A stretch of DNA of 64,000 bases from positions 142,308 through 206,307 of the forward strand of contig CAVUGS010000009.1 of the NCBI GenBank assembly GCA_963741075.1, read 5' to 3'. Below the pieces are notes generated by a model. It was not told where the DNA came from. It worked only from the letters and a program-made list of their open reading frames with translations, and ran no database searches. Made by a program: the position numbers and the translations under genes. The DNA comes from an uncultured Thermoleophilia bacterium. GTDB taxonomy: Bacteria > Actinomycetota > Thermoleophilia > UBA2241. This document shows, in pieces, positions 1,411 to 51,445 of the stretch (within the stretch, counting starts at the first letter, position 1; every line of letters starts with the position of its first letter).

Positions 1411-1427
1411 GTTCGCCTCCTCCTCGC

Positions 1428-13777: not shown

Positions 13778-13993
13778 GTCCCGCCCCCTTGTCCCGAGGC
13801 CACGACTGGCGTCGCGGCCCCTGCCGCTCGCGCCGAACTTGCTCGGACTATTCCCGTTTGGAGAAGCCCAACGACCGATGACGTTGAAAGCGGGACCTGA
13901 CCGCGTCGGCAGGCCAGGCTACCCCCCATCCGGTTTGACGCCGCCGAGGCCGGGCATGAGTCAGTCGCGACAGCCCCCGAGCAGGAGAGCAAG

Positions 13994-20474: not shown

Positions 20475-20679
20475 CGAGAGTGTGGGGGTCGCCGTGCTGC
20501 GCGCTCATGAGTCCACTCTACCCCCGAGCGCGCGCCGTGATGGTCCCCGCATCCGGCGCCCGGCTACGGCGCCGTGCCGACTCGCTGCCCCATCCGCCGG
20601 GTACTCAGAGTGTGCACGCTGTCTCACCAGGCCGGAGCCGCTGTCCGGCCGCGACAGAACTCCCACGGAGGCGAGAGCG

Positions 20680-21609: not shown

Positions 21610-21742
21610 AGCGCTGAGCGGCCCGCCGCAAGGGCGGAGGGAGACGAGAACATCTGGACCCTCCGCCCGCCTGCGCGGCCGCTTGTGGGCCTGCTTGACA
21701 CGCCCGCGACCCCGTCTGGTATGGTCCGGAAGCGCGCTTCGT

Positions 21743-21762
21743 TTAGTTATCCGACTAACTAA
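21743..21762. promoter_or_regulatory. Candidate TetR operator upstream of mtbB copy 1: TTAGTTA-tccgac-TAACTAA
   Basis: Perfect 7-bp inverted repeat in an AT-rich patch 34 bp before the start codon; near-identical to the palindrome at 25499-25520. Confidence 0.55.
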
Positions 21763-21795
21763 CGACCGCCCTTCGGGGGGACGATGGGAGGATCG

Positions 21796-23184
21796 ATGGC
21801 ACAGCGCATCCCGACACGGCTCGGTGACGGCTCGCTCGTCGAGATGACCCGGGCTGAGGTCGAGGCCGACCTGCACGCCGGCTCGGAGGCGGCCGTCAGG
21901 CGGGCGAAGGTCGAGCCGCTCACGCAGGACGAGCTCGATCACCTGCTCGACATCTTCACCTCCCCGGCGAAGTTCAGCGCCGTCGACTACGGCGACGAAG
22001 TCGTCCTCAGCTTCGACGGCTCGGGCAACGCCGACCTCGGGGCGCCGATCCTCGAGCAGGTCGTGTACCAGAACCACCACGGCGCCGACATGATCGAGCT
22101 CTGGCACCACGACTACTCGTACAAGGCCGTGCGCACCGTGCTCTCGTTCCAGACGCAGATGCTCAAGGACGCGCAGCAGCAGACGGTGATCCCGCTCAAC
22201 TACGGGGCGATGCCGGACCTGGGCCGCTACTCGCAGCCGGACGGCCCGGTCCAGAACTGGTCGGAGCTGATGCCGCTGGGCAAGATCGCCGAGGCGCGGG
22301 CCGCCCAGCTGGAGGCCGTCGAGCACCTCGAGCACGACATGTGGCTGGTGGCCGAAGCGATGGTGGCGGCCGGAGCCGACGGCCTCGACTTCGACACCGC
22401 AGGGGCCGCCGGGGACGCCGACCTGCTGGCCACGCTGCGCACGGCCCGCAGGGTCCGCGACACGTGGCCCGACATCGGCGTCGAGATCGGCCAGGCCGCC
22501 GAGCTCGTGCTGGGCATGCACGGCGAGCTCGAGTACGAGGGCATCCGGCTGGCCGGCCAGTGGCCGCTCGGCCAGCTCCGCGCCTGCACCGCCGCCGGCG
22601 CCACGATCTTCGGGCCGGCGGTGAACGTCAACACGACGAAGTCGCTCGCCTGGAACACCGCGCGCTCCTGCGCGCTCATCAAGCCGGTCACCGCCGAGGC
22701 CACCATCCCGGTGCACGTGAATGCCGGGATGGGCGTCGGCGGCGTCCCCATGACCCCGTATCCGCCCGTCGACGCCACGTCGCGCGCCTCGCGGGCGCTG
22801 GTCGACATCTGCAAGATCGACGGGTTGTAGGTGGGGGTCGGGGATCCCCTCGGGATGGCCTCGTCACACGCGCTCGCCTCGGGCATGGGCGGGATGCGGA
22901 CTGCCGGAGATCTGGTGGCCCGCATGCAGATGACCCGGGGCCTGCGCCTTCCGCAGGCCAAGCAGTACGTCGCCGACAAGCTCGGCTGCTCCGTCGCCGA
23001 CCTCAGCGACACCGTCGCGATGCACGACATCCGCCGCGATCTCGGCCTCGGCCGCATCCTGGTGCAGGACCTCACGTACGCCGACCAGCCGGGGACGATG
23101 GAGGCCAAGTTCCACATCGCCGAGGTGCTGGACATCCCGATCAACTCGGTGGAGCGCTTCAAGGCCAACGCCGGACTGCGGTAA
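21796..23184 (+). CDS. mtbB: Dimethylamine:corrinoid methyltransferase MtbB-like, in-frame TAG (putative pyrrolysine) at 22828-22830
   Basis: [31 protein letters not shown]...[42 protein letters not shown]. Total ~462 aa with the TAG at ~residue 345, as in archaeal MtbB (467 aa, Pyl 356). RBS GGGAGGA before the ATG at 21796 (alternative ATG at 21784). Confidence 0.85.
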
Positions 23185-23191
23185 GGAGACT

Positions 23192-24689
23192 CATGGGCTC
23201 GCAGCTCGACCTCAGCCGGCGGCAGCCGCTGCTGCCGCTCGGCTCGGACTTCGCCGTGCGCTTCTACGACGACGCGAAGCTCGACCGCTACAAGGAAGCC
23301 GTGCTCAGCGTGCTCGAGCGGACCGGCGTCAGGTTCGGCTCGCCGAAGGCGCTCGACATCCTCGCCGAGCACGGCGCCGACGTGGACCGCGCGTCCGGTG
23401 TCGTGCGCTTCGCGCCCGACCTCGTGACGGCCGCGCTGGCGAAGGCCCCGCGGACGTTCTGGCTGGGCTCCCGCGACGGCACGCTCGACCTCGACCTCGC
23501 GAGCGGCGAGACCTACAACACCACCAACGGCTGCGGCACCGAGGTCGTCGACTGGCACACCGGCGTGCGCCGGCCGCCGACCAAGGACGACCTCTCGGCC
23601 ATCACGCGCATGATCGACTACCTGGGCTCCGTCCAGTTCTGGTGGCCGAACGTCGCTGCCGCCGACTGCGGTGACACGCACACCCTGCACGAGCTGGACG
23701 CGGCCTGGAACAACACCGGCAAGCACCTCCAGGGCATGGTGCAGGGCGAGCGCGAGGCGCGGTTCGCGGTCGAGATGGCGACGGTGATCGCGGGCGGGGC
23801 GGAGCAGCTGCGCCGCCGCCCCCCGATGAGCAACCTCATCGGCACCGTCCAGCCGCTCATCAACGACAAGGACGGCATCGAGGCGGCGCTGGTGTTCGCC
23901 GAGGCGGGCATCCCCGTGTGCTTCGTCACCATGCCGACCTACGGGACGACGGCGCCGGCCACCAAGGCCGGCGCCTGCGTGATGGGCTTCGCCGAGCTGA
24001 TCAGCGCCACCGTGTGCGTGCAGCTGGCGCACCCCGGCGCGCCCGTGATCCTCTTCCCGCTGCCGGTGCACGCCGACCCGCGCACCGCGGCGCTGACCAC
24101 GGCGCCGCTGAATCACCGCGGCCTGTTCCTGCCCGGCGAGCTCGTGCACCACTTCGGGCTGCCGGCGATGACCGGCTACGCCGGCACCGACGACGACCTG
24201 CCGGGCAGCTGGCTGGCCGCGGCGGAGACGGCGCACACGGTGATGCTCGCCGGCGTCGTCGGCTCGGAGCTGATGACCACCATCGGGCTGACCAACCGCT
24301 ATCAGCTGTTCACGCCCGAGCACATGATGCTCGACGACGACCTCTACCACCGCGCCGCAAACGCCTTCCGCGACCTGGAACTGGACGAGGAGACCCTGGC
24401 GCTGGACGTCATCGACGAGGTCGGGCCGGGCGGGCACTTCCTGGGCCAGCCGCACACGCGCCGGCACATGAAGGAGACCGTGGAGCGCTCGATCGGCCAG
24501 GAGCTGGGCCCCGACGGCACGCACCTGCGGCACCCGGTAGAGGTCGCGCGCGAGCGGGGCGTCGACATCCTGGAGCACTACGTGCCGGAGCCGCTCGACG
24601 CGGCGAAAGCGGCGGAGCTGGCAAGGATCTGCGCCGCCGCGGACGAGGAACTCGGCGGCCAGGTCGTGGGCCGCGGCGAACGCGACTGA
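23192..24689 (+). CDS. MttB-superfamily methyltransferase, non-pyrrolysine paralog (quaternary-amine type)
   Basis: Uninterrupted 499-aa ORF with AAGGAG RBS. Homologous throughout to the MttB-family genes at 26950 and 28446, but has TGYAGTDDD where the Pyl motif would be. Confidence 0.75.
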
Positions 24690-24708
24690 CGTTCGGTCGG
24701 CGCCGCCG

Positions 24709-25410
24709 TCAGTCCGGCTCGTCGCCTGGCTCGCCGCCCGACTCGACGTGGCCCAGCACGAGCCGGCGCCAGAGGTCGAAGGCCGGCTCGAAGTCCAGGT
24801 CCGGGTCGGCGAGCTTCTGCAGCGCGATGCCGTCGGCGATGGCGACCGTGAGCAGCGCCATGGGCGCGATGTGCGCCGCGGGCTCCTTGTCGCCCGCGTC
24901 CTTGAGCGCCCACGCGTCCAGCTTGCGGTACCAGTCGAAGAGCTCGCGCAGGTGCGGTCGCAGCTCATCGTCGCGCAGGATGTGCGGGATGAGCTCGAAG
25001 AAGTTGCGGTAGGCGTCGGTGTCCTCGGGCAGTCCCTCGTGCAGCGCGAGCAGCTGCTTGCGCCGCTCGTCGCCGGCGGGGACGGCGGTGAGCTGCTCGA
25101 TGAGCTCCACCGCCTCCTGATACATGACGGAGTCGACGAGCGCGACGAGCAGGCCGGCCTTGCTGCCGAAGTGGTAGCGGATGAGCGCAGGGTTCTCGCC
25201 CGCCTCCCTGGCGATGGTCTCGAAGGTGAGACCGCGGAAGCCGTCGCGGGCGAGCACGCGCCTGGCCGCCTCCAGGATGCGCGCGGCCGTCGGGGCGAGG
25301 TCGGGCGTGGGATCGCCGAACGGCAGTTCGTACCTGGTCAGCGCACCCACCCCCTTCGCGTCTGTCGCCGGGCGTCGTCCGCGCGCCGCCCGGCGTTTTT
25401 CGATGCGCAC
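24709..25410 (-). CDS. TetR/AcrR-family transcriptional regulator
   Basis: HTH segment LTFETIAREAGENPALIRYHFGSKAGLL. Convergent with the mttB paralog and divergent from mtbB copy 2. The true start may be internal. Confidence 0.8.
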   Translation of the reverse strand: MRIEKRRAARGRRPATDAKGVGALTRYELPFGDPTPDLAPTAARILEAARRVLARDGFRGLTFETIAREAGENPALIRYHFGSKAGLLVALVDSVMYQEAVELIEQLTAVPAGDERRKQLLALHEGLPEDTDAYRNFFELIPHILRDDELRPHLRELFDWYRKLDAWALKDAGDKEPAAHIAPMALLTVAIADGIALQKLADPDLDFEPAFDLWRRLVLGHVESGGEPGDEPD

Positions 25411-25498
25411 CCTATCGGATACCGGCGGCCGCGCGCCAGACCCACGCCTCGGCGCAGCCGCCTTGACACCCCAAGTGCGTCTGCTAGTCTACCCGCAT

Positions 25499-25520
25499 AT
25501 TAGTTATGTAACTAACTAAT
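25499..25520. promoter_or_regulatory. Candidate TetR operator upstream of mtbB copy 2: ATTAGTTA-tgtaac-TAACTAAT
   Basis: Perfect 8-bp inverted repeat in the divergent TetR/mtbB intergenic region; same half-sites as 21743-21762. Confidence 0.6.
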
Positions 25521-25548
25521 CCTGCATGACGGCCATCGGGGGTGCTGG

Positions 25549-26953
25549 AGTGGAGAGACCCGTACGCACGCGACTCGGCGACGGGTCGCTCGTCGAGATG
25601 ACGCCCGGCGAGATCCGTGAGGACCTGCTCGCCGGCACCGAGATCGGCGCCCGCCGCGCCAAAGCCCCGCCCCTCTCGGACGCCGAGATCGACCACCTGC
25701 TCGACATCTTCTCGACCGAGGCCAAGTTCAGCGCCGTCGACATGGGCGACGAGGTCTGCCTGAGCTTCGACGGTTCCGGCAACCTGGACTCCGGCACGCG
25801 CGTCGACGAACTCTACAGCTACCAGAGCCACCGCGGCGCCGACATGCTCGAGCTCTTCGCCATCGACTACTCCTACAAGGCGATCAAGACCATCCTGAGC
25901 TACGAGACGCAGGCGATGAAGGTGGCCCAGCTCAACCTCATCGCGCCCACGCAGTACGGCGCGATGCCGGACCTGGGCCGGTACTCGATGCCCGACGGCC
26001 CGATCCCGAACTGGTCCGAACTCATGCCGCTCGGCCGCATCCAGGAGGCGCGGGACGCCCAGGTGGCGGCCATCGACCACGCCGTCAGCGACATGGTGTT
26101 CGTCGCCGAGGGCATGTGGGAGGCCGGCGCCGACGGCATGGACTTCGACACCGCCGGCGCCGCGGGAGACGCCGACCTGCTCGCGACCCTCACGGCGGTC
26201 GAGACACTCAAGGGTCGCTACCCGGACGTCGGTATCGAGCTCGGCATGGCGAGCGAGTGCGTCCTCGGCATGCACGGCGAGCTCACCTACAAGGGCACCC
26301 GGCTCGCCGGCATGTGGCCCAAGGCGCAACTCGAGGTCGCCCAGAAGGCCGGCGCCACCATGTTCGGACCGGCCGTCAACGTCAACACGACGAAGTCGAT
26401 CGCCTGGAACGTCGCCCGGGCGTGCACGATCATCAAGCCCTGCATGGACGTGGCCGAGATCCCCGTGCACCCCAACGTGGGCATGGGCGTCGGCGGCGTG
26501 CCCATGAGCCCGTACCCGCCCGCCGACGCCGTCTCGCGTGTCTCCCGCGCGCTGGTCGACATCCTCAAGTGCGACGGGTTGTAGGTGGGCGTCGGTGACC
26601 CTCTGGGCATGGCGTGCACGCACGCGCTGGCCTCGGGCATGGGTGGGATGCGGGCCGCCGGAGATCTGGTGGGCCGCATGCAGATGACCCGAGGGATGCG
26701 CCTCAACGAAGCCAAAGCCTACGTGGCGGAGAAGCTCGGCTGCGCCGTGGCCGACCTCGCCGACCCCATCGCCATGCACGACGTGCGCCGCGACCTCGGC
26801 CTCGGCCGGATCCCGGTGCAGGAGCTCACGTACCCCACGCACGCCGGCGCCATGGAGGCGAAGTTCCACATCGCCGAGGTGCTGGACGTCCCCATCAACA
26901 GCGTGGCGCGCTTCCAGGAGTGCGCCGGGCTGCGCCAAGGAGGAGCGGTGTGA
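25549..26953 (+). CDS. mtbB: MtbB-like dimethylamine methyltransferase copy 2, in-frame TAG at 26582-26584
   Basis: ...[46 protein letters not shown]...; the GTG at 25549 after a GGAG RBS gives an N-terminus collinear with the other copies (ATG at 25526 is an alternative). Confidence 0.85.
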
Positions 26954-28429
26954 AGAGGAACCTGCACGCCGGCGGCACGCGCAGCCGCGGGCTGAGCGTC
27001 AACGTCTTCACCGAGTCCGAGCTCGAGGACATCCATCTCGCGTCGCTCGAGGTGCTCGAGCGTACCGGCGTGTTCGTGGAGGCGGACGACGCGCGCGACA
27101 TCTTCCGGGACGGCGGGTGCGCCGTCGACCCCGAGACGCGCATCGTGCGCATCCCGCCGCACGTCGTCGAGGACGCCATCGCCTCGTCGCCGAGCAAGTA
27201 CGTGCTCTGCGGGCGCGACCCCAGGAACGACTTCCTCATGGAGCCGGGCCGGGTCGGGTTCACCAACTTCAGCGAGGGCATCCGCGTCATCGACAGCGAC
27301 ACCGGCGAGTACCGCGAGTGCACGCTCGAGGACGTCGGCGACATCGCCCGCCTCAACGACTACCTCGGCGAGATGGACACGCACGAGATCTCCGTCGGGG
27401 CCAGAGACGTCCCGCCGGAGACCGCCGCCGTCCACAACACCGAGGCGCAGCTGCTCAACACGACCAAGCCGATCGGCATCGGGCCGCTCTCGGGGATGGA
27501 GTGCCGCGCGATCCTGCGCATGTGCGCCGAGGTCGTCGGCGGCGAGGACGCGCTCCGCGAGCGGCCCATCGTCTACGGCGGCGTCTGCCCCGTCAGCCCG
27601 CTGAAGCTGCCGCGCGACGTCACCGAGGTCATCATCGAGTGCTCGCGCTGGTGGATCCCGGACAACATCCTCAGCATGGCGATGGCCGGCGGCTCCAGCC
27701 CCGTCACCCTCGCCGGCACCCTGGTCACGCACAACGCCGAGGTGCTCGAGCGGCATCGTGCTCGCCCAGCTCACGGAGCGCGGCTGCCCCGTGATGTACG
27801 GCAGCTCGACGACGGCGATGGACCTCAAGCTCGCGGCGGCCTCCGTCGGCTCGCCGGAGATCGCGCTGATCAGCGCCGGCGTGGCGCAGCTGGCCCGGCG
27901 CTACACGATCCCGAGCTTCGTGGCGGGGTTGTAGGCGGATTCCAAGCTCGGTGACGCGCAGACCGGTCACGAGAAGACCCTCACCGGCCTCACGGCAGCG
28001 TTGGCAGGCGCCAACCTGATCTATGGTGCGGGGATGATCGAATCGGGCGTCACCTTCGACAGCGCGCAGTTCGTCATGGACAACGAGATCGCGCGCATGA
28101 TCAAGCACGTCGTCGGCGGCATCCGCGTCGACGACGAGAGCCTCGCGGTGGACGACATCGCCGCCGTCGGCGCGTTCGGCGACTTCCTGAGCCTGGACGC
28201 GACCATGCGCCACATGCGCGAGCTCAGCCAGCCTGAGGTCCTCGACCGCCGCGTGCGCGAGGACTGGGAGGCACGCGGCAGCACGGACCTGTACGCTCGC
28301 TGCCACGCCAAGGCGAAGGATATCCTCGCCGAGCACCATCCCGAGCCGCTCCCCGACGACGTCGCGAAGCGCATCCGTGCGATCGTGGAAGAGACCGACC
28401 GCGCCGTGGGCGTCAGCGCGCCGGCGTGA
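26950..28429 (+). CDS. mttB: Trimethylamine-methyltransferase MttB-like with in-frame TAG (putative pyrrolysine) at 27942-27944; one apparent frameshift near 27749
   Basis: ...[65 protein letters not shown]... The C-terminal 160 aa after the TAG have no start codon and continue MttB homology. GTG start overlaps the mtbB stop (GTGTGA). Confidence 0.75.
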
Positions 28430-28445
28430 GCCGAGAGGGAACCCC

Positions 28446-29920
28446 GTGAAGGACCCACTCAAGCAAGCCATCATCCGGCAGCCTCTGGCGCCTCTGCGGT
28501 CCGACTTCTCGTTCCGCTTCCACGACGAGGCGGGGCTGGAGCCGCTGCACGAGGCCACCCTGCGGCTCCTGGAGACGACGGGCATGCGCTTCGAGTCGCC
28601 CAAGGCGCTCGCGATCCTGGACAAGGCCGGCGCGAAGGTGGACGAGGGCTCTGACCTCGTCCGCCTGCCCCGCCGGCTCGTCGAGGAGGCACTCGCCCAG
28701 GCGCCGCGGCAGTTCACGCTCGGCGCCCGGGACGCGGCCTGCGACCTGCGACTCGGCTCGGGCTTCACCTACGGCACCACCGACGGCTGCGGCGTCGAGG
28801 TCGTCGACTGGCACACCGGCGAGCGCCGCTCGTCCACCAAGGCCGACCTCGAGGCGATCACCCGCATGCAGGACTGCCTCGGCTCGATCAGCTACTGGTG
28901 GCCCACGGTCAGCGCCGGCGACTGCGGCGAGACCGCGCAGCTGCACGAGATCGAGGCCGGCTGGAACAACACGGGCAAGCACCTCATGGGCATGGTGCAG
29001 GGCGAGACGCTCGCCAGGGCGGCCGTCGAGATGGCGACCGCGGTGGCCGGCGGGGCCGAGGAGCTCCGCCGCCGGCCGGTCCTCAGCGACCTCATCGGCA
29101 CCGTCTCGCCGCTCCTGCACGACAGGGACGGCATCGAGGCCGGCCTGGTCTTCGCCGCGGCCGGCGATCCCGGTCTGCTACGTGACCATGCCCAACCTCG
29201 GCACGACGGCGCCGGCCACCAAGGCCGGCGCGTTCGTCGTCGGCGCCGCCGAGATCGTCGCCGCGGCGGTGCTCCACGAGCTCGCCGCGCCGGGCAGCCC
29301 GGTCATCGGGTCGATCATGCAGATCTACGCCGACCCGCGCACGGCGCTCACCCTGACGACCCCGCTCGACGACCGCTGCCGGTTCCTCGCCACCGAGCTG
29401 CTGCACAGCTTCGGGATCCCGGCGCTGGGGGCGTTCGGCGGCACCGACGCCCAGGCGCCCGGGACGTGGCTCGCCGGGGTCGAGACCATGCTGCAGCTGC
29501 TGCAGGTGCCGCTCGACGGCTGCGAGCTCTACACGCGGCATCGGGCTCACGGACACGTACCAGCTGTTCACGCCCGAGACCCTCATCCTCGACGACGACC
29601 TCTACCACCGCGCGAGGCACGCCTTCCTCGACATCCCCATGGACGAGGAGTCGCTCGCGCTGGACGTGATCGACGCCGTCGGCCCGGGCGGGCACTTCCT
29701 CGCCCAGCCGCACACCCGCCGGCACATGCGCGACGCCGTCCTGCGCTCGGTGAGTCAGCAGATCGGCCCGGACGGGCAGCACTACCGCGACCCGGTGGAG
29801 GTCGCGCGCGAGCGCGCCCTCGACATCCTCGACGGCTACCGGCCGGAGCCGCTCGCCGCCGACGTGCAGAGCGAGCTGCGCCGCATCGTCGACGCCGCGG
29901 ACGCGGCGGTCAAGGGATAG
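28446..29920 (+). CDS. MttB-superfamily methyltransferase, non-Pyl paralog 2, at least 2 apparent frameshifts; terminates with TAG
   Basis: Collinear with the 23192-24689 protein (N-terminal region ~43% identical to it, then TMPNLGTTAPATKAGA...GPGGHFLAQPHTRRHM). Segments lie in ORFs 28377-, 29182-30168 and 29639-29920. Confidence 0.7.
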
Positions 29921-29944
29921 CCGCCGCCCGCGGCGGCGGTCGCC

Positions 29945-30899: not shown

Positions 30900-30961
30900 G
30901 TGGGCACCCTACCATTCCCGCGTGCCAGGCGCAGGCGATCGTGGCAGCCTCGGGCCGCGAC

Positions 30962-31826
30962 TCAGGTGTCGAGCAAGAGACGATCGACGGCGAAAGCCTC
31001 GCCGGCGACCTCGTGGAACTTCTCGATGAGGTCGCCGACCTGGAGCGTAGCCTTCTGCTCGCTGCTCAAGTCGAGGACGATGCGACCGGCGTGCATCATG
31101 ACCAGCCGGTCGCCGTAGCGCAACGCCAGCTCCATGTTGTGGGTCACCATCAGAGTCGTCAGCTGGCGCTCCGTGACGATCTCGCCCGTGAGTCCCATGA
31201 TCGTGGCCGCTACCTTGGGGTCCAGCGCGGCCGTGTGCTCGTCGAGCAGGAGGAGGCTCGGCTCGGCGATGGTCGCCATGAGCAGGGACATCGCCTGGCG
31301 CTGTCCGCCGGAGAGCTTGTTGACCCCCGCCTTGAGCCTGTCCTCGAGGCCCATGCCGAGGCGCGAGAGCTGCTCGCGCATCACTGCGCGCCGCTTGTTG
31401 GTCACGCCCATGCGCAGGCTGCTCCGCTTGGCGCGGAGCAGCGAGATGGCCAGGTTCTCCTCGATGGTCATGTCGGGGGCGGTGCCGGCGCGCGGGTCCT
31501 GGAACACCCTGCCGATGGACCGGCTGCGCACGTACTCGGGCTGCCTGGTCACGTCCCGTCCGCCGAGGAGCACCTTGCCCGACGTCACCGCAAACGTGCC
31601 GGCCACGGCGTTGAGGAGCGTGGACTTGCCGGACCCGTTCGAGCCGATGATGCTCACGAACTGGCCGGCCGGGACTACAAGGTCGATCCCGTTGAGCGCC
31701 ACGACCTCGTTGGCGGTGCCGGGGAAGAAGATCTTGCGGATCGCGCCGAGCTCCAGCGGGGCCGGCGCGCGAAGCGGTGCCCCTCCGGCGCCCCGCTCGA
31801 TAGCTTGTCTGCGGCGGCTGTTCACG
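30962..31826 (-). CDS. ABC transporter ATP-binding protein (COG1101-type)
   Basis: GSNGSGKST Walker A, LSGGQRQAMSL signature, LLLLDEHTAALD Walker B; GTG start overlaps the permease stop (GTGA). Confidence 0.8.
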
Positions 31827-32725
31827 AGTGCATCACCTTCTTGCGCACCGTGGGGACCGAGAGAGCGACGACGACCAGGACGGCCGTCAAGAGCTTGAGG
31901 TCGGTCGGCGCAATGCCCAGCCGCAGGCTCACGGCGATGAGCAGCCGGTAGACGATCGAACCGCCGATGACGCTGAACAGCACCCAGCTGATGCTGCGGA
32001 CTCCGAACAGCACCTCGCCCATGATCACGCCGGCCAGGCCGGCCACGATGGTGCCGATGCCCATGCCGACGTCGGCGAACCCTTGTTGCTGCGCCACCAG
32101 CGAGCCGCTCAGCGCGACCAGCGCGTTGGCGATGCCCAGGCCGACGATGCGCGTGATGTTGGTGTTGGTGCCCATGCGCCCGGATCATGCTCTCGTTGTC
32201 GCCGGTCGCCTGCAGGCAGAGGCCGAACTCGGTGTGCAGCAGCCAGTCGAGCAGGTACTTGACCGCCACGGCGAGCGCGGCGAGCCCGATGATGAGGTTC
32301 CACGCGACCATCGACAGCGAGAACAGCGCGCCGATCTTGTCGAAGATGACCTGCACGCCCAGGAGCGGGGTGTTGCTCTTGCCCATGATGCGCAGGTTGA
32401 CCGTGTACAGCGCCGTCATCGTGAGGATGCCGGCGAGCAGCTTGGGACCGTAGTTGGTCGCGTCGCCGTCACCCGACTTGAGCAGCAGATGCAGGAACCC
32501 GGTGACGAAGCCGGCGCACAGGCCTGCGAGGACGCCGGCCGCCGTCGCAAGGACGGGCGAGTGGCCGCCGGCGATGAGCGCCGCCGTGACGGCCGCGCCG
32601 AGCGGCAGGCTGCCGTCGACGGTGAGGTCGGGGAAGTCGAGCACGCGGAACGTGATGAACACGCCCAGCACCATGAACGCGTAGACGAGACCCTGGAGCA
32701 GGGCGCTCTGGATGATGACCTGCAC
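31822..32725 (-). CDS. ABC transporter permease (COG4120-type), one apparent frameshift near 32190
   Basis: MQVIIQSALLQGLVYAFMVLGVFITFRVLDFPDLTVDGS... continues as (M)GTNTNITRIVGLGIANALV... in another frame. Confidence 0.7.
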
Positions 32726-32741
32726 TGACGCGACTCCGTGA

Positions 32742-32820
32742 CGGGGGCCGGAGTAGCTTCGCTGCTCCGGCCCCCCGTTGGCAACCCCGACCCCCGCCCG
32801 CCCGAGGCGGGCGGGGGTCG
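32742..32820 (-). other. Two tandem GC-rich intercistronic hairpins between SBP and permease genes
   Basis: acgggggccggag...ctccggccccccgt and gacccccgcccgcc-cgag-gcgggcgggggtc. Confidence 0.45.
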
Positions 32821-32841
32821 CAGGGACGTGTTACCGGCGGC

Positions 32842-33871
32842 TCAGAACTTGTTCTGCGCCTGGGACTTGAGATCGGCGGGGATGGTGACGCCCATGGCCG
32901 CCGCCGCCTTCTCGTTGATCGGACAGCTGCAGGTTCTTGGCGTACTCGACCGGGATGTCCTTGATCGGCGTGCCGCTCAGGATCTCGGCGGCCTGGTAGC
33001 CCGCCTGCTTGCCCAGGTCCTTGTAGTCGAACGCGTAGGCGGCGACGGCGCCGCGCTTGACGCTGTCGGTGTCGCCGGCGATGACGCGGGATCTTGTTCT
33101 GCTCGCCGATCTTGATGATGCTCTCGAGCGCCGAGACGGCGGTGTTGTCGCGTGAGCACCGAGATGGCGTCCACGCGGCCGACGAGCGACTGCGGTCGCC
33201 GCCTGGACCTCGGACGAGTTGCTCGGCGGTCGCGTCGATGACCTTGATGCCCATCTTCGCCGCGGCCTCCTTCTCGGCCTTGATGAGGAACACCGAGTTG
33301 GACTCGCCGGCGTTGTAGACCACGCCGATCGGTCTTGACGTCCGGGACGATCTGCTTGATGAGGTCGAGGATGCGGCTGCACCGGCAGCATGTCGCTGAC
33401 GCCGGTCACGTTCGCCGGTCGGAGCCTTCGGGTCGGTGACGAGGCCGGCGCCGACGGGATCGGTGACGGCGGTGAAGACGATCGGGGTGGTCGTGATCGG
33501 CCTTGACGACGGCCTGGGTCGTCGGAGTGGCGACGCCGAGGATCAGGTCGAGGCCCTCGCCGGCGAACTTCTGCGCGATGCTCGAGGCGTTCGCCATGTC
33601 GCCCTGCGCGTTCTGGTCGTCGTAGGTGACGTTGGTGAAGCCCTTCTCGGCCAGCGCCTCCTTGAAGCCCGCGACGGCGGCGTCGAGCGCCGGGTGGGTG
33701 ACGATCTGGGTGATGCCGATCTTGTACGCCTTGCTCGTGCGTCGGAGCTGCTGCTCGGACTGCTGCTGGAGCTGCTCGAGTCGCTGCCGCAACCGGCGGC
33801 GAGGCCGAGCGCGACGACGAGAGCACGAGCACGATGGCGACGCTCAGCCTTGACATGGGACGCATCGTTCT
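32842..33871 (-). CDS. ABC transporter substrate-binding lipoprotein (COG2984-type), multiple apparent frameshifts
   Basis: MRPMSRLSVAIVLVL..LAAGCGS lipobox, KIGITQIVTHPALDAAVAGFKEALAEKGF..., VVYNAGESNSVFLIKAEKEAAAKMGIKVIDA, end ...NLQLS..QNKF; pieces spread over three or more frames. Confidence 0.6.
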
Positions 33872-34086
33872 CCTTTCGGACCTCTGGATGGTTGGCGCAT
33901 TGTAGTGGCGCCGCGTCTGCGCGCACAAGCACTGCGACTCATACGATATGCAGACGGAGATACAGCACCAAGGAGAGGGCGGCGGGCCGCTGGCCCGCCG
34001 CCCTCTCCGAGTGCGACGCCTGAGCGCTGGAGCCGGCGGCGCGTCCGGGGGCGGGCCTCCCGCCCCTCCCCGCGCCGCCCCCGCCG

Positions 34087-35488
34087 TCAGAAGCCCGAGG
34101 TCCGCTCCTTGAACCGCTCGACCGAGTTGATCGGGATGTCGAGCAGCTTGCTGATGTTGAACTTGGCCTCCATCATGCCCGGCAGCGCCGGATGCGTGGA
34201 CGAGGTCATGGTGAGCAGGCCGAGCCCGTGGTCCTGCCGGATGGTCTCCATGGCGACCGGATCGGACTGAGGTCGCGCGTGGTGCAGCCGAGCTTGCCGG
34301 CCACGTACTCCTTGGCTTCCTTGAGACGCATACGCCTGGTCATCTGCATCCGAGCGACGAGATCTCCCGCCGCCCGCATACCGCCCATGCCGGACGCCTG
34401 CGTGTGGGCTCCCTCCATGCCGAGAGGGTCGCCCGTGCCCACCTAGTAGCCGTCGATCTTGAGGATCTCGACGAAGGCCTTGCTGGCCCGCGAGGTGGCG
34501 TCGGCGGGCGGGAACAGGCACGTCGGCACGCCGCCGACGCCCATGCCCACGTTCACGTGCACCGGGATCGTGGCGACCTCGGCGGCCGGCTTGATGAAGG
34601 TGATCGCCCGGGCGATGTTCCAGGCGGTCGACTTGCCGGTGTTGATGTTGACGGCCGGCCCGTAGATGCTGGCGCCGGCCGCGGTGACCATCTCGAGCTG
34701 CTTCTTGGGCCACATGCCGGCGAGGCGCTCGCCGTCGAACTCGAGCTGGCCGTGCATGCCGAGCACGAACTCGCTCGCCATGCCGATCTCGATGCCCAGA
34801 TGCGGGTACTTCTCGCGCAGCTGGCGGCAGGCGGTGAGGGCGGCGAGGAAGTCGGCGTCGCCCGCCGCCCCCGTCGTGTCCATGTCGATGCCGTCGGCGC
34901 CGGCCTCGATCATGGCGTCGGCGACGAAGTCGATGTCCTCGACCAGCATCGCCGCAGGCCTCGACCTGGGCGTCGCGCGCCTCGTCGATCTTGCCCATGG
35001 GCAGCAGCTCGGACCAGTTCGGGATGGGGCCGTCGGGCTTCGAGTAGCGGCCCAGGTCGGGCATGGCGCCGTACTGCACCGGGTTGGTGAGCAGCGCCTG
35101 CGCGATCTTCATGCTCTGGCCCTCGTGGGCCACGTTGGTCTTGACGGCCTTGTAGGAGTAGTCGGCCTGCCACAGCTCGGGCATGTCGATGCCGAGCAGC
35201 GTCTCGTAGCTCTGCAGGTCCTGCACCCGGTTGCCGATGTGCTTGGTCCCGGTGCCGTCGTTGCTCAGCACGACCTCTTCGCCGATGTCGACGGCGGTGA
35301 AGCGCGCCGACGATGCGTAGATGTCGAGCAGGTGATCCAGCTCGTCCTGCGTGAGTACGTCGACCTTGGCCTTCTTGGCCGCGACCCTCGGTGCCTTCTT
35401 CGAGATCGGCCTTGATCTCGGAGCGGGTCATCTCGACGAGCGACCCGTCACCCATGCGAGTGGGGATCTTGGGCTCCAACAGCATCAC
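34087..35488 (-). CDS. mtbB: MtbB-like dimethylamine methyltransferase copy 3, in-frame TAG at 34443-34445; 3-4 apparent frameshifts
   Basis: [21 protein letters not shown]..., [37 protein letters not shown], ...[45 protein letters not shown]..., C-terminal ...[27 protein letters not shown]. Confidence 0.75.
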
Positions 35489-35650
35489 CTCCGTGCTTCG
35501 TCCGGATCGACCGCCTGCGCCGTGGCGCGCGAGGCCCGCGAGCTACCACGATGAGAGCGAAGCGATGCGACCACTGTCCGGCGGACCTCCGCGCGCCAGT
35601 CTACAGCGGCCTCCTTCGGAGGCGCCACCGGCCAGAAGGCCGCGAGGAGA

Positions 35651-37063
35651 TCAGAGAGGCGGGATCGCCGGCTGCTTCACGAACGGCACCATCGGCAGGC
35701 GCCACGGCGACGATTCGACGGGCACCGGGGCTCCGGCGCCGGCGCGTCCGGCGCCGAGCGAGACCATTGGAGGACCCGCGGGTGTCTTCGCCAGGAGCAA
35801 GCGGACCACGCCGCCGGCTTCGACCGTCGCGCTCTCGACGGCGACGGGCAGACCGGCGCAGCTCACGGTGAACCCGCCGGCGGGGCCGGGAGCGAGCGGC
35901 TCGGCACCGGGCGCCGCGCTGACGGTCACGTCACGCGCCCCGTTCCAAGCGACGGAGGCCACCGCCGGCGACCGGGCCGCGGAGCGGCCGAGCACACCGG
36001 CGAGAATCGCCGCCGTCCAGCGTCCCGCCGCAACCTGCATGTCGTCGGCGGCGGCGAAGTGGACGACGCCTTCGAGGTCGATGTCGTAGAGAACCGGGCC
36101 AGCGACGACGTTCGCCCGGCCCCACGCGCCCTGCTGCGCGAGGCGGACTGCGTCGACGCCGGCATCCCGGTAAGCCGGGCCGTAGTCGCCGATCTGCGCG
36201 ACGACCAGCGGCGCGCCGCAGTCTCGCCGCAGGTCCCGGCTCAGCCGGAGCAGCGACGCCTCGTAGGAGTCGCCGGGCGTCAGCCGCCGGGCATCGGCCT
36301 CGCCTTGCCAGAAGAGTACCGCTCGGACGCGCCCGCCCACCGTGCGGATGCGGCGCAGCATCGAGCCGTAAAGCGTCGACGGCTCGCGCGGCGCCACGGC
36401 CGGCCGCTGCCAGCTCGCCACGGTCGTCCCGACGCGCGCGCACGGCACCAGTGCAACGGGCACGCCCTCGGCGGCCATGAGGCGCTGAGCGACCAGCGGC
36501 CACACCGAGCCGCCCGCGCCCGCGTCCCGGCTGACGCCGTCCACTTGTCCTTCGGCCGAGTCCACCGGGTCTCTGAGCCGCTGCCAGCGATAGTCGTTGC
36601 CGAAGACCGTCGCCTGCAGGTTCGGGTCCGCGCACCTGAACCGGATTGGGCTCCGTCCGCTCGCATTGCTCTGTCCGGCGATCACGTAGATGTCGCCCAC
36701 GCCCACCAACCGCCGCATGGCGGCGATCTCGTGGTGCCGCGCGCTTCGCGCGACGAGCGCGGCCTGGCCCGCGAGCTGGGACGGAAGCGTGAGGGCGAAC
36801 GAGCCGTCGGCCGCGCGGGAGGCCTGCCGCCAGGAGCCGTGGCCCCAGCGCACCTGTACGGGGCCCGCGAAGCCTCGGACCCTGCCGATGACCGTGATGC
36901 GGGCAGACCCACCGGCGCCGCGCTGGACGACCTGGCAACTGCGCGGGGTGGAAATGGTGATGCGGGGCGCGGCCGAGGCCACGGAGCCTGAGCCGGCCAC
37001 GGCCAGCACGGCGAGCGCTCCCACGACGGCCAGCACGGCCGCACCACGCGTGCCCACGGACAT
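35651..37063 (-). CDS. Secreted SGNH-hydrolase / sialate O-acetylesterase-like protein
   Basis: Signal peptide; GDIYVIAGQSNASG block typical of the DUF303/SASA esterase family; 470 aa intact. Confidence 0.65.
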   Translation of the reverse strand: MSVGTRGAAVLAVVGALAVLAVAGSGSVASAAPRITISTPRSCQVVQRGAGGSARITVIGRVRGFAGPVQVRWGHGSWRQASRAADGSFALTLPSQLAGQAALVARSARHHEIAAMRRLVGVGDIYVIAGQSNASGRSPIRFRCADPNLQATVFGNDYRWQRLRDPVDSAEGQVDGVSRDAGAGGSVWPLVAQRLMAAEGVPVALVPCARVGTTVASWQRPAVAPREPSTLYGSMLRRIRTVGGRVRAVLFWQGEADARRLTPGDSYEASLLRLSRDLRRDCGAPLVVAQIGDYGPAYRDAGVDAVRLAQQGAWGRANVVAGPVLYDIDLEGVVHFAAADDMQVAAGRWTAAILAGVLGRSAARSPAVASVAWNGARDVTVSAAPGAEPLAPGPAGGFTVSCAGLPVAVESATVEAGGVVRLLLAKTPAGPPMVSLGAGRAGAGAPVPVESSPWRLPMVPFVKQPAIPPL

Positions 37064-37103
37064 GACGCCAGCTCCTCCATTCGACGACAGCGCAGCCCCT
37101 CAG

Positions 37104-37179
37104 TGGAGCCGGCGGGCGGGTTCGAACCGTCGACCTGCCGCTTACAAGGCGGCTGCTCTGCCAGCTGAGCTACGCCGGC
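37104..37179 (-). tRNA. tRNA-Thr (anticodon TGT)
   Basis: Reverse complement GCCGGCGTAGCTCAGCTGGCAGAGCAGCCGCCTTGTAAGCGGCAGGTCGACGGTTCGAACCCGCCCGCCGGCTCCA; one A-C mismatch in the T-stem. Confidence 0.8.
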
Positions 37180-37236
37180 CCGCGGACAGTCTACCCCAGG
37201 CGGCCCGACGCACAGCACCCGGACTATACTGGCCCC

Positions 37237-38103
37237 ATGCGAAGTCTGTGCCAGGCATGGAGACGCCGGACCGTGCCCGGCGTGGCCCTCATCATCACTG
37301 CGGCGGCGCTCGCGCTGCCGTTCGCCACGCCCCCCTCGGCATCCGCCACCTCGGCCCCGGAGGTGAGGGCCCGCAGCGGGATCCTCATCAGCCGCACGAC
37401 CGGCAACGTGCTGTGGTCCAAGAGCCCCGGCCGGCGCCTGGCGCCGGCTTCGTGCACCAAGATCATGACCGCGCTTCTGGTGCTCGAGCACTACCGCGAT
37501 CTCAGCCGCACTGTCCGTGCGCCGGCAAGCGTCACCAGGCAGCAGGAGGTCGCCATCGGCCTCAGCCCGGGTGACCGGATCACCGTGCGCCAGGCTCTCC
37601 GCGGCCTGCTCATCAAGAGCGCCAACGACGCCGCCGTCACGCTCGCGGTCGCGGTCGCCGGCAGCGAGCGCGCGTTCGTGCGTCAGATGAACCGCCGGGC
37701 CGTCCAGTTGGGGCTCACGGACACCCACTACCGCAACTGCCGGGGCAAGGACCAGACGGGACATTATGCGTCGGCGCGCGACCTGGCGACGCTGGGCCGG
37801 CTCGCCATGGAGGACACGCGGTTCCGCGCGATCGTCGGGACCAGGACCGCGGTGATCACGTGGCCCCCATCGCACCGCGTCACCGTGACCTCGCACAACC
37901 GGCTGCTGGACTACGCGTGGGGCAACGGCATCAAGACGGGTTCCACCAGATTGGCGGGGATGGTGCTCGTCGGCTCGGGCAGCCCGTCGGGCGTCCCCCT
38001 CATCGTGGTGACCATGCACGAACCGTCACGCGACCGCGAGGAGAAGGACGCCGTCGCGCTCTTCAAGTGGGGTGCCACCCAGACGGCTCCCGCCGGACCG
38101 TGA
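37237..38103 (+). CDS. D-alanyl-D-alanine carboxypeptidase (peptidase S11)
   Basis: SCTKIMTALLVLEH (SxxK), LIKSANDAAVTLA (SxN), signal peptide. Confidence 0.8.
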   Translation: MRSLCQAWRRRTVPGVALIITAAALALPFATPPSASATSAPEVRARSGILISRTTGNVLWSKSPGRRLAPASCTKIMTALLVLEHYRDLSRTVRAPASVTRQQEVAIGLSPGDRITVRQALRGLLIKSANDAAVTLAVAVAGSERAFVRQMNRRAVQLGLTDTHYRNCRGKDQTGHYASARDLATLGRLAMEDTRFRAIVGTRTAVITWPPSHRVTVTSHNRLLDYAWGNGIKTGSTRLAGMVLVGSGSPSGVPLIVVTMHEPSRDREEKDAVALFKWGATQTAPAGP

Positions 38104-39086
38104 GCGCGCCTCGACCGTCGAGCCGGCGATCGGAGCCGCACCGGCTGATTCACTGCAGGTCTGCAGCCGGCCGCCCGGCGCTCCTGCCGCCCGCCCTCCT
38201 CGCCACGCTGCTCGCCGCCCTCGCGCTCGCCACGGTCGCGACGCTCGCCGCCTGCGGCGGCGAGCCCCCCTCCGCGGGGCCCTCGCCGACCGGCACGGCG
38301 CCGCCCGAGGTGCAGGCCTGGACGGGCATCCTCGTCGAGCGCGACTCGGGCGACGTGCTCTGGAGCAAGGACCCGGACCGCGAGCTGCCACCGGCGTCCT
38401 GCACCAAGATCATGACGGCGCTGCTCACGCTGGAACACGTGGACGACCTCGACGCCATGGCCACGGTGCCGGACATCCCGCTGCCACAGAAGGTCGGGGT
38501 CGACCTGGTCCCGGGCGACCGCATCAGCGTCAGGCAGGCGCTCACCGCCCTGCTGGTCAAGAGCGCCAACGACGCGGCGCTCACCCTGGCCTCCTACGTC
38601 GGCGGCAACGAGAAGAAGTTCACAGGGCTGATGAACCAGAGGGCGAAGCAACTGGGCCTGACGCACACGCACTTCATGAACTGCCGCGGGACGCCGGAGG
38701 ACGGCCACTACTCGTCGGCCCGCGACCTCGCGACGCTCGGCCGGTTCGCGATGGGGGACGCCACCTTCCGGGAGCTCGTCGGCACCAAGACGGCCGTCAT
38801 CCGCTACCCGCCCGACGGGGCGGTGCCGGTGAAGAACCACAACCGCCTGCTGGACTACCCGTGGGGCGACGGCATCAAGACCGGCGCGACGGACATCTCC
38901 GGCAAGGTGCTCGTCGGCTCGGGCAAGCCCGGACCCGTCGCCCTGATCGTCGTGACCATGCACGAGCCGACGCGCGACCAGGAGGTCAAGGACGCGGTCG
39001 CGCTGTTCGCGTGGGGCACGGCCGAGCACCTGCGGCGCGCGGCCGCCTCCCCGGCTCCCTCGCCGTCCGCCTCACCGTCGCCCTGA
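38100..39086 (+). CDS. D-alanyl-D-alanine carboxypeptidase paralog, lipoprotein
   Basis: LAACGG lipobox, SCTKIMTALLTLEH, LVKSANDAALTLA. The true start may be internal to the ORF; the GTG at 38100 overlaps the upstream stop. Confidence 0.75.
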   Translation: MSAPRPSSRRSEPHRLIHCRSAAGRPALLPPALLATLLAALALATVATLAACGGEPPSAGPSPTGTAPPEVQAWTGILVERDSGDVLWSKDPDRELPPASCTKIMTALLTLEHVDDLDAMATVPDIPLPQKVGVDLVPGDRISVRQALTALLVKSANDAALTLASYVGGNEKKFTGLMNQRAKQLGLTHTHFMNCRGTPEDGHYSSARDLATLGRFAMGDATFRELVGTKTAVIRYPPDGAVPVKNHNRLLDYPWGDGIKTGATDISGKVLVGSGKPGPVALIVVTMHEPTRDQEVKDAVALFAWGTAEHLRRAAASPAPSPSASPSP

Positions 39087-39098
39087 CGACGCGGCGGC

Positions 39099-40481
39099 TC
39101 AGCCGCCGGTGAGGGCGCGCAGACGCTCGGCGGAGCGCACCGGCACGTCGAGCACGCGGGCGATGTTGAGCTTGGCCTCGATCGCCAGCGCGTCTTCCAC
39201 GGTCGCCGTGTCCTCGGTGGGGATCGTCCCCAGGCCGTGCGCGCGGCGCACCTCGGCCATCGTCACCGGGTCGCTCAGGTCGGCGGGGCTCACGCCGAGC
39301 TTGTCGGCCACGTAGGCCTTCGCCTCGGGAAGCCGCATCCGTCGGGTCATCTGCATGCGGGCCACCAGATCTCCGGCGGTCCGCAACCCGCCCATGCCCG
39401 ACGCGACACCGTGGCCGATCCCCTGGCTGTGGTTGTCGCCGGCGCCGATCTACAAGCCGTCCAGCCGCAGGAGGTCGACGCACGCGCGCGAGGCGCGCGA
39501 GACGGCGTCGACCGGCGGCAGCGCGTGCATGGGGACGCCGCCCACACCCATCCCCCCGTTGAGGTGGATGGGGATCTCGGCGGCGTCGGTGCACGGCTTG
39601 CAGATGGTGCAGGTGCGCGCCACGTTCCAGGCGACCGTCTTGCCGGTGTCGACGTTGATGGCCGGTCCGAAGACCGAGGCGCCGGCCCTGGCCGCCAGGC
39701 GCATCTGGTCCGCCGGCCACAGTCCCGCCAGCCGCACCCCGTCGTACTCGAGCTCGCCGTGCATGCCCAGCACGAACTCGCCGGCCATGCCGATCTGGAT
39801 GCCCCAGTGCGGGTACCTGGCGCGGATGCGCTCGATCGCCTTGAGGGCGGCCAGGAAGTCGGCGTCGCCGGCCGCCCCGGCGGTGTCCAGGTTGATGCCG
39901 TCGGCGCCGGCCTCGTACATGCCCGCGGCCACGTACACGATGTCTTCCACCGCGAGCTCGACCGCCTCCTCCTGGGCCGCCCGCGCCTCTGCGATGCGGC
40001 CCAAGGGCAGCAACTGCGACCAGTTGGGGATGGGGCCGTCCGGCACCGTGTACCGCCCCAGGTCCGGCATGGCGCCGTACTGGCACGGGACGGTGAGCAG
40101 CAGCTGCGCCCGGCGCATGGTCTCCTGCTCGAACGGCAGCACCGGCTTGACCGGCTTGAACGAGTAGTCGTGGTGATACAGCTCGACCGTGTCGGTGCAG
40201 ACGGTCTGCTCGTAGTTCTGCAGGTCGTTGATGCGCGACCCGGCGTCCTGGCTGCCGACGCCGTCCGAGCTCAGGACGACCTCGTCGCCGATGTCGACGG
40301 CGCTGAAGCGGGAGCGGCTCGCGAAGATGTCGACGAGGTGGGCGATCTCGTCCACCGCCAGCGGCTCCACCCTGGCCCGCTTCGCCCCGGCCTCGGCGCC
40401 CGCGTGGACGTCGGCTTCGATCTCGGCGCGGGTCATCCGCACCAGCGACCCGTCGCCCATGCGCGTCGGGATGCCTTCCAT
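39099..40481 (-). CDS. mtbB: MtbB-like dimethylamine methyltransferase copy 4, in-frame TAG at 39450-39452, otherwise intact; divergent post-Pyl segment
   Basis: [112 protein letters not shown]...; 460 codons. Confidence 0.8.
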
Positions 40482-41074
40482 CGGCCCTCCGTCCGTCCGA
40501 ATCGTGTTCCCGCCGGCGCGGCCGCGACGTCGGTCGCTGCCCCTCCGACGTCCCGAGGCTACAGGGCTCGCGGCCGGCTGTCAGCGGCGGATACTTGGGC
40601 AAAGTTCACGGCGGCACGGCGCAAAGGTACGGCGACGCGCGGCGGGAGCCGGGTACGGGCGAGACGACCCCACAAAGGGGCGAGGCCCCGCGGGGAACGG
40701 GGCCTCGTACAAGGGCTTTGGGGCAAACCCTCGTGAGGGGGGTTCTTCGCTTGCCAGCGAAAGGAGCCATCCACATCTTCCCCAATGAATGTTGCGCCCG
40801 CGTGAAGCGGCGCGAACGCGCGAGAAGGGAAGGTTGCCCGGCAGTTACAGGGCAGGCGGGACCAGGGGTTGGGGGTCGGGTCCGCGCCCTGAAGATGGCC
40901 GAAGGCCGGCGGATCGTGCCGCTTTGGGGCGGCCGCCCGCCGGCCCTCTGGCCGTGGTTCGCCCGGGGCCGGGGCGAACCAAGAAGATAGGAGGTACCAG
41001 CACTTGGCGCTGGCAGCGGGCTTCTCGGAGACGGGAAGCGTCGCAAGGGGGACACTAGGAGCGACGTGTTGCGG

Positions 41075-49023: not shown

Positions 49024-51445
<2,422 letters not shown>

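Follow-up and report, generated by a model that had tools for sequence, protein, structure and literature searches.

Why should an island of genes for corrinoid-dependent methyltransferases contain no gene for a corrinoid protein? The question is raised by a stretch of 64,000 nucleotides from an uncultured Thermoleophilia bacterium (assembly GCA_963741075.1, contig CAVUGS010000009.1, positions 142,308 to 206,307), called the window throughout. Its region at 21.7-40.6 kb holds, by Pfam and NCBIfam assignment, four mtbB genes, one mttB gene, two MttB-superfamily genes without a pyrrolysine (Pyl) codon (fam1 and fam2), a TetR regulator and an ATP-binding cassette (ABC) importer. A preliminary description of the same DNA had drawn attention to the missing partner genes and had proposed that they are either shared and encoded elsewhere or that the organization is atypical. 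The answer that best fits the evidence presented below, and that is in our judgment probably correct, is that this is a methylamine and quaternary-amine methyltransferase island of Thermoleophilia whose corrinoid gene has been deleted and whose Pyl machinery is encoded at an unlinked locus.

The proposed deletion is read from three adjoining features:

26950-28429 (+): mttB, Pyl-type trimethylamine:corrinoid methyltransferase (TIGR02369; PYLIS_3 at 27932), with one single-base insertion near 27748-27751

28446-28475 (+): remnant of a corrinoid gene, of which the opening 10 codons (VKDPLKQAII) survive, GTG start included, together with the ribosome-binding site; recognized by synteny with relatives

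28446-29920 (+): fam2, non-Pyl MttB-superfamily gene (PF06253) fused in frame to the corrinoid-gene start and ending in TAG, with single-base insertions near 29166 and 29536

Relatives were gathered by scanning species-representative genomes with MtbB2, which returned 29 loci (designated by L numbers), nearly all of them in Thermoleophilia or Actinomycetota metagenome-assembled genomes (MAGs), with identities reaching 93%; many are MFD MAGs from Microflora Danica, a Nanopore-only study of soil and sediment (PMC12313526). In three of these loci (L002, L008 and L012), one block matches window positions 21694-28480 and a second one 28476-29920; the blocks are separated by 620-650 bp that the window does not have, and the synteny break in the window falls at 28475/28476. 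The insert of the relatives encodes a protein of 208 amino acids with the motif DLHDIGKN…MSALLTTT…VMVGG and the domains PF02310 and PF02607, referred to here as type A; it scores best against the MtgC, MtbC and pyl_corrinoid models, with MtgC at the top and every score below its cut-off. In the islands of the relatives the type-A gene is situated between mttB and fam2. What is left of it in the window? The mttB stop is followed by a ribosome-binding site and then by GTG AAG GAC CCA CTC AAG CAA GCC ATC ATC, i.e. VKDPLKQAII, and at the syntenic position the 208-codon gene of the relatives begins with M-K/N-D-Q/P-L-K-Q-A-I-I-D-G (in L004 with MKDPLKQAIIDG). The remnant, GTGAAGGACCCACTCAAGCAAGCCATCATC, is joined in frame to CGGCAGCCTCTGGCG… of fam2; the sequence directly after the ten codons is CGG CAG CCT CTG GCG…, encoding RQPLAPLRSDF, where the conserved part of fam2 starts. 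These 10 codons are the sole trace of a corrinoid gene in the window.

Judged from the sequences, the body of the corrinoid gene and the variable N-terminal tail of fam2 appear to have been excised together, leaving a chimeric open reading frame (ORF). The island would thus have no corrinoid gene because that gene was deleted, since its remnant is fused to the next gene and the closest relatives keep it at the same spot: over the island, the nearest ones that retain it share 93% (L026), 90% (L005), 90% (L007) and 88-94% (L017) nucleotide identity with the window. In L005, L026 and L004 an amino-acid permease gene (PF13520) stands between the corrinoid gene and fam2, and the size of the deletion hinges on the ancestral state: with the permease in the ancestor it is about 2.3 kb, otherwise about 0.63 kb. 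A short CGGCA occurs near both breakpoints in the relatives; the position of the junction does not follow from it exactly.

Could the deletion nevertheless belong to the assembly and not to the organism? That the long-read assembly or its consensus is at fault, and that the real genome has the corrinoid gene, would agree with the many indel errors of this assembly, with the presence of the gene in every closest relative and with the finding of the exact junction allele nowhere else. The indel errors seen here, however, are single-base events, far from the 0.6-2.3 kb at issue; a repeat liable to collapse is absent, and the fusion is clean and in frame, with the start site kept. Moreover, comparable but different deletions of the corrinoid gene were found in three other genomes, one of which (L015) apparently derives from a short-read assembly, judged solely by its MEGAHIT-style contig name (k141_). 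Among the more distant genomes, L009 and L015 have a mini-ORF of 30 amino acids in which an N-terminal ‘…DG’ is joined to a C-terminal ‘DGYGANAG…ERAKELVG*’, the junction of L010 differs (‘…IAGDA|GMAVERAK…’), and in L013 the corrinoid gene is gone and the permease alone remains. By this comparison the gene seems to have been lost at least three times independently in the clade, via differing deletions. Nor would the propensity for deletion be confined to the corrinoid gene across the clade, as the mtbB2 of L017 is internally deleted (13711-13830), its N-terminal part being fused to the C-terminal DVPINSVARFQKCAGL. A deletion-prone island with repeated independent losses argues that the deletion in the window is biological, and we regard an artefact as very unlikely.

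The remaining genes of the island were called by the GC bias at third codon positions instead of by ORF length, the window having about 70% G+C:

21796-23184 (+): mtbB1, intact (PF09505, E 9e-160; TIGR02368 equivalog, 418.2 bits against a cut-off of 369.1; Rfam PYLIS_2)

23193-24689 (+): fam1, non-Pyl MttB-superfamily methyltransferase, intact (PF06253, E 1e-54), with no in-frame TAG

24709-25350 (-): TetR-family regulator, intact (PF00440 and TetR_C_31), with weak BetI-like similarity (sub-threshold BetI matches)

25526-26953 (+): mtbB2, intact (PF09505, E 5e-164; Rfam PYLIS_2)

30962-33840 (-): ABC importer, with ATPase at 30962-31760, permease at 31822-32720 and substrate-binding protein at about 32880-33840 (ABC_tran, BPD_transp_2 and PF04392 ABC_sub_bind)

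34087-35485 (-): mtbB3, with three frameshifts (PF09505, E 8e-145 over three stretches; PYLIS_2)

39099-40481 (-): mtbB4, intact (PF09505, E 1e-160; PYLIS_2, 46 bits)

All four mtbB genes belong to the dimethylamine methyltransferase family (PF09505/TIGR02368), and their products share 58-68% identity with one another. Once its single-base insertion is corrected, the stitched MttB passes the TIGR02369 equivalog model with 691 bits against a cut-off of 525, which fam1 (272 bits) and fam2 (302 bits) do not reach; neither of the two has a Pyl codon. They are therefore non-Pyl members of the MttB superfamily and not MttB, and no substrates are assigned to them. None of the mtbB genes of the window adjoins a gene for a cognate corrinoid protein (MtbC), a gene that is present in relatives; the missing MtbC neighbor is a trait of the gene context, not of the MtbB enzyme family. 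The ABC importer occupies a syntenic position in relatives and contains several single-base frameshifts. Unrelated genes also lie within 21.7-40.6 kb, namely those for an SASA esterase, a tRNA-Thr and two D-Ala-D-Ala carboxypeptidases. As for the wider surroundings, two tRNA-Thr genes (CGT/TGT, at 5188-5263 and 37104-37179) bracket the island. The distance between them is 31.9 kb in the window but only about 19 kb in L008 and L012, relative to which the window has roughly 12 kb of additional genes on the upstream side of the island, a peptide ABC transporter and a peptidase among them.

The frameshifts just mentioned invite a different explanation, namely that the island is decaying: the frameshifts would be real, mttB, fam2, mtbB3 and the ABC importer would be pseudogenes, and the partners would be absent because the pathway is being lost. 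Such a scenario draws on the deletion of the corrinoid gene itself, on the deletion-prone nature of the island in the clade (as in the mtbB2 of L017) and on some 10 frameshifts in mttB (1), fam2 (2), mtbB3 (3) and the ABC genes (about 4-5), clustered at 26.9-35.5 kb. Yet roughly 30 frame switches occur across the whole window, with a single inserted base at each site that was read (sites include 18058-18122, 20660-21609, 27748-27751, 29166, 29536, 50705-50763 and 54532-54599), and by an approximate tally about 10 of them fall in the 19-kb island and about 21 in the other 45 kb, a similar density. Those outside the island interrupt the genes for a class I aldolase (3) and a class II aldolase, both fructose-bisphosphate aldolases, as well as a nitrilase, hdrA, clpB, the C-terminus of dnaK, an AI-2E transporter and an aminotransferase. 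Frameshifts likewise affect the Nanopore MAGs of the relatives, for example in the corrinoid genes of L002 and L011, and mtbB1, mtbB2, mtbB4, fam1 and tetR are intact in the window, with the in-frame TAG codons conserved. Finally, the proteins stitched from frameshifted genes are 93-96% identical to their best orthologues, compared with 93-98% for intact genes; the stitched mtbB3, for one, is 96% identical to its L005 orthologue. Because housekeeping genes are frameshifted too and the stitched proteins are as conserved as the intact ones, assembly error is favored over decay: on this comparison of sequences, the frameshifts most likely arose as errors in the consensus of a long-read assembly rather than as changes particular to the island, and decay of the pathway is unlikely. 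Three of the insertions directly precede GGCATC or GATC, and programmed or motif-linked frameshifting was considered; it was rejected, as the clpB, dnaK and class II aldolase sites do not have the GGCATC/GATC motif.

Do the methyltransferases of the island actually require Pyl? Each of five genes contains a single in-frame TAG: mtbB1 (22828-22830), mtbB2 (26582-26584), mttB (27932-27934), mtbB3 (34443-34445, minus strand) and mtbB4 (39450-39452, minus strand). The TAG column is identical in all four mtbB genes, in the context …DG[LY]-TAG-[VI]G.GD…, and TAG at the Pyl position followed by conserved sequence is found in 77 of the 77 mtbB copies of the window and the 29 loci. Rfam PYLIS models match all five TAG sites of the window; these matches serve solely to mark homologous coding sequence downstream of the codon and are not taken to indicate a functional RNA element. 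Such conservation of the codon and of what follows it makes sense only if UAG is translated, and UAG in mtbB and mttB is accordingly presumed, on comparative grounds, to be read as Pyl. TAG also serves as an ordinary stop in the window, in grpE, clpB, fam2 (29918-29920), a peptidase S15 gene and an SBP_bac_5 gene (e.g. 53204-53917 and 48988-50763), so that the reading of UAG would be ambiguous if Pyl is decoded; ambiguous UAG is described in other users of Pyl as well (PMC12626013). Two further observations concern the mtbB genes. The motif after Pyl is divergent in mtbB4 (IGAGDNHSQGI versus VGVGDPLGMA), a divergence kept in its orthologues in L012 (at about 20461) and L026 (at about 2054), and from the sequence mtbB4 may have an altered active site or substrate. 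In addition, L003 (JBLMXT010000224.1), with three TAG-containing mtbB genes and 92% identity to MtbB2 of the window, was deposited as Deltaproteobacteria bacterium MAG248, a label that probably reflects an error of binning or taxonomy, since the other close relatives are all Thermoleophilia.

Given this apparent dependence on Pyl and corrinoids, could partner genes be hidden elsewhere in the window, perhaps in frameshifted fragments? A Pfam scan of all coding-like pieces in six frames over the whole 64 kb (24 thousand amino acids translated) returned no PF02310/PF02607, uroporphyrinogen decarboxylase (URO-D), Pterin_bind, RACo, PylD, PylC or PylS-type class-II aminoacyl-tRNA synthetase domain, and a six-frame regular expression for DxHxxG...SxL...GG gave 0 matches in the window and matches in seven related loci. 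With the type-A corrinoid protein of the lineage as the tblastn query, the best E value in the window was 1.4, versus 1e-44 to 1e-133 in relatives; with PylSc, PylB, PylC, PylD and the type-B corrinoid protein of the lineage (see below), it was 0.08 or worse, versus 1e-96 or better in a control locus. ARAGORN detected no tRNA-Pyl in the window, while tRNA-Pyl(CTA) was detected in L030/L031 as a positive control; blastn with pylT of these two loci gave a match of just 12 nt in the window, and Rfam reported two tRNA-Thr genes and PYLIS-type matches only. The ARAGORN calls in the window comprise the two tRNA-Thr and one doubtful tRNA-Ser(tga) at 39810-39890 (+), which lies inside mtbB4 on the opposite strand and was set aside as a probable false positive, the Rfam tRNA model being silent there even at E up to 1. 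For a RamA-type activase and for MtaA/MtbA methyltransferases of URO-D type or an MtgA methyltransferase of pterin type, the window likewise contains no RACo, URO-D or Pterin_bind domain, a negative that comes without a lineage-specific positive control.

These searches bear out the preliminary description in its account of the window: the island has no corrinoid protein gene, no pylT/pylSBCD and no RamA-type activase, no ORF carries a B12-binding motif, cap or PylS-like synthetase domain, and mtbB is paired instead with mttB-family genes, a TetR regulator and an ABC importer. The prospect it had raised of corrinoid genes concealed in frameshifted fragments did not materialize, the frame-independent tblastn and six-frame scans being negative.

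If not in the window, where is the Pyl machinery of this lineage encoded? A tblastn search for PylSc, using an M. mazei PylRS sequence as the query, detected a homologue next to an mtbB paralogue in L018 (E 6e-55), which scores 314 bits with TIGR02367 against a cut-off of 178. PylSc homologues form more than 120 clusters at ≥70% identity in a large protein database, and some of these clusters are named ‘pyrrolysine--tRNA(Pyl) ligase large subunit [Thermoleophilia bacterium]’ by NCBI. A conserved Pyl locus was found in three contexts (L030, L031 and L034), on contigs of 0.19 to 2.0 Mb, the genes on which it rests being pylSc, tRNA-Pyl(CTA), PylD_N, PylC-like and radical S-adenosylmethionine (SAM) PylB. 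Its order is TldD/PmbA (two genes), a helix-turn-helix regulator, OsmC, BacA, an amidase, pylSc, a corrinoid protein of 210 amino acids on the opposite strand and a radical SAM gene, continuing with a Germane-domain gene, tRNA-Pyl(CTA), pylD, pylC, pylB, a nitroreductase, ThiS, a ferredoxin and an aldehyde:ferredoxin oxidoreductase. The corrinoid protein encoded there is a distinct paralogue with DVHDIGKAIVIAYLKANGY, here called type B, which reaches 223.5 bits with TIGR02370 pyl_corrinoid (cut-off 215.3) and is orthologous to the corrinoid protein whose gene adjoins mttB in L024. There, the order is the textbook one, mtbB–corrinoid A–corrinoid B–mttB. The islands of the lineage have four or five mtbB paralogues and no mtmB. 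As none of the genes of the Pyl locus occurs in the 64-kb window, the methyltransferase island of the lineage is not linked to the Pyl cassette or to one of its corrinoid carriers, and by analogy the genome of the window would be expected to have the same separate Pyl locus elsewhere. The locus is not uniform, however, and seems to be rearranged in some members of the clade. In L018 (8800-12530), pylSc is convergent with the mtbB paralogue and a TetR gene, which occupy the position that the corrinoid gene, pylT and pylDCB have in L030, L031 and L034; no pylT or pylBCD was found within 10 kb on that side, and near pylSc there was neither a detectable tRNA nor a CTCTAAA anticodon-loop motif, pylT being located downstream of pylD in L030/L031.

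Taken together, the following scenario can be envisaged. The ancestral island would have had one type-A (MtgC/MtbC-like) corrinoid gene between mttB and fam2, which a deletion then removed except for its start site and first 10 codons, now part of an in-frame fusion with fam2. As methyl acceptor the methyltransferases would use a corrinoid protein encoded in trans, either that of type B or another, which would make the island copy dispensable, and the methylcorrinoid-accepting methyltransferase and the reductive activase would presumably be unlinked as well. There is precedent for one corrinoid-binding protein serving two methyltransferase systems (PMC12478193). Of the two options offered by the preliminary description, partners encoded elsewhere gain support for pylT, pylSc, pylBCD and a second corrinoid paralogue, via relatives only, and an atypical organization holds in part: the layout of the lineage is typical, the genome of the window is a deletion variant of it, and the deletion as the cause had been missed.

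The same repeated loss of corrinoid genes, with mtbB and mttB remaining intact in several genomes, might also be taken to mean that the biochemistry itself is different, i.e. that MtbB, MttB and the MttB-family proteins work without a dedicated small corrinoid protein and use the corrinoid domain of another enzyme or some other route of transfer; a corrinoid module common to two pathways has, after all, been described (PMC12478193). This is nonetheless highly improbable, given that canonical corrinoid genes adjoin these methyltransferases in most relatives, that L024 has the mtbB-corrinoid-corrinoid-mttB order and the Pyl locus a paralogue of the pyl_corrinoid class, and that MtbB1 and MttB score above the equivalog cut-offs set for corrinoid-dependent enzymes. 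A bolder extension deserves mention, which we consider conceivable and rather doubtful: a widespread soil and sediment clade of Thermoleophilia might use Pyl in four or five divergent MtbB proteins per island, one of them with DPLGM changed to DNHSQ, to act on new substrates beyond dimethylamine, all served by the single corrinoid protein encoded in trans at the Pyl locus. If true, such sharing of one carrier by all MtbB proteins would explain why the island corrinoid gene was lost repeatedly.

Several points weigh against a deleted corrinoid gene combined with an unlinked Pyl locus. The exact junction allele, searched for as a wobble-degenerate pattern, had 0 matches in metagenome contigs of the Joint Genome Institute (JGI), and no independent copy of it emerged. 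The frameshift count is approximate, and the frameshifts are locally dense at 26.9-35.5 kb. For the genome of the window, the Pyl locus and the second corrinoid gene are deduced from relatives only. Furthermore, in no relative did the surroundings of the island or of the Pyl locus reveal a methylcorrinoid:tetrahydrofolate (THF)-type methyltransferase or RamA, so that the full pathway is a presumed one for the lineage. More precisely, the 10 kb around the island, around L024 and around the Pyl locus of relatives, inspected by eye or through Pfam annotation, showed neither RamA nor a second methyltransferase (MT2), a negative that again comes without a lineage-specific positive control. At the paralogous loci L016-L029, where the neighbors were read by eye without a full Pfam scan of all, none was RamA- or MT2-like; the neighbors comprise genes for aldehyde:ferredoxin oxidoreductase, a LarA-like gene, genes for FAD (flavin adenine dinucleotide) oxidoreductases, ornithine cyclodeaminase-like genes and an amidohydrolase gene.

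Outside the island, a few features of the window are worth recording. At 89-3083 (-), genes for an HdrA-like flavoprotein with frameshifts, HdrB-like CCG domains and an HdrC-like 4Fe-4S protein are followed by a LuxR-type response regulator; from the sequence, the Hdr-like genes suggest anaerobic or flavin-based electron-bifurcating metabolism. The region at 57900-60250 combines a weak coding signal with several CxxCH motifs and sub-cut-off Pfam matches to multiheme cytochrome c, and probably represents one or more badly frameshifted multiheme cytochrome genes. The window also has a dnaK-grpE-dnaJ-hspR operon, which we take to be consistent with an actinobacterium.

What, then, does the locus teach? 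Missing partner genes can stem from a small recent deletion and an unlinked Pyl locus, and not from new biochemistry. The apparent dispensability of the island corrinoid gene points to corrinoid carriers common to several methyltransferases. On the practical side, annotation will wrongly break up mtbB and mttB genes at their amber codons, and likewise genes interrupted by indels in long-read MAGs, and report the pieces as fragments. Pyl itself is not new in the phylum, since the list of Guo et al. 2022 (PMC9630628) already includes PylRS genes from two Actinobacteria and the Prokaryotic Genome Annotation Pipeline (PGAP) already labels Thermoleophilia PylS. A search of the literature returned no paper that meaningfully links pyrrolysine with Thermoleophilia, and a soil clade of this class is documented here as having the whole Pyl system along with numerous mtbB paralogues, where actinobacterial PylRS had earlier only been counted (two genomes in PMC9630628). 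These findings have a bearing on methylamine turnover in soils. All in all, the lack of partners in the island is real and now largely explained as a variant of a known system, to which recurrent corrinoid loss adds a modest observation.

Which known system does it vary? In bacterial Pyl methylamine clusters, mttB/mttC occur with pylTScBCDSn, as in Desulfitobacterium hafniense, Acetohalobium arabaticum and Bilophila. The window resembles them in that its mtbB and mttB genes each have one conserved UAG in frame, and the lineage in its split PylS of bacterial type (PylSc), bacterial-type tRNA-Pyl, pylB/C/D and small corrinoid proteins with DxHxxG...SxL...GG. It departs from them in that the host belongs to the Thermoleophilia (Actinomycetota), lives in soil or sediment and has a high GC content, that the islands of the lineage carry 4-5 mtbB paralogues and no mtmB, with the Pyl genes forming a separate locus, and that the corrinoid gene of the island is deleted in the genome of the window. 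In Methanosarcina, mtbB-mtbC and mttB-mttC operons are accompanied by RamA and MtbA. The likeness here lies in orthologous first methyltransferases (MT1) that pass the equivalog models and in the mtbB-corrinoid ... corrinoid-mttB order of L024, whereas RamA was not found near any locus examined; no MtbA is expected, as this is a bacterium without coenzyme M. Finally, the MttB superfamily includes systems that do not use Pyl, such as the MtgB/MtgC/MtgA glycine-betaine system of D. hafniense and related quaternary-amine systems (PMC13080624, PMC6855144). Unlike these, neither the window nor the islands of the relatives have an MtgA-type pterin-binding methyltransferase, and the MtgC scores are all below cut-off; at the same time, fam1 and fam2 without Pyl, a type-A corrinoid protein that scores best against MtgC models, and the adjacent BetI-like TetR regulator and transporters all recall the MtgB systems.

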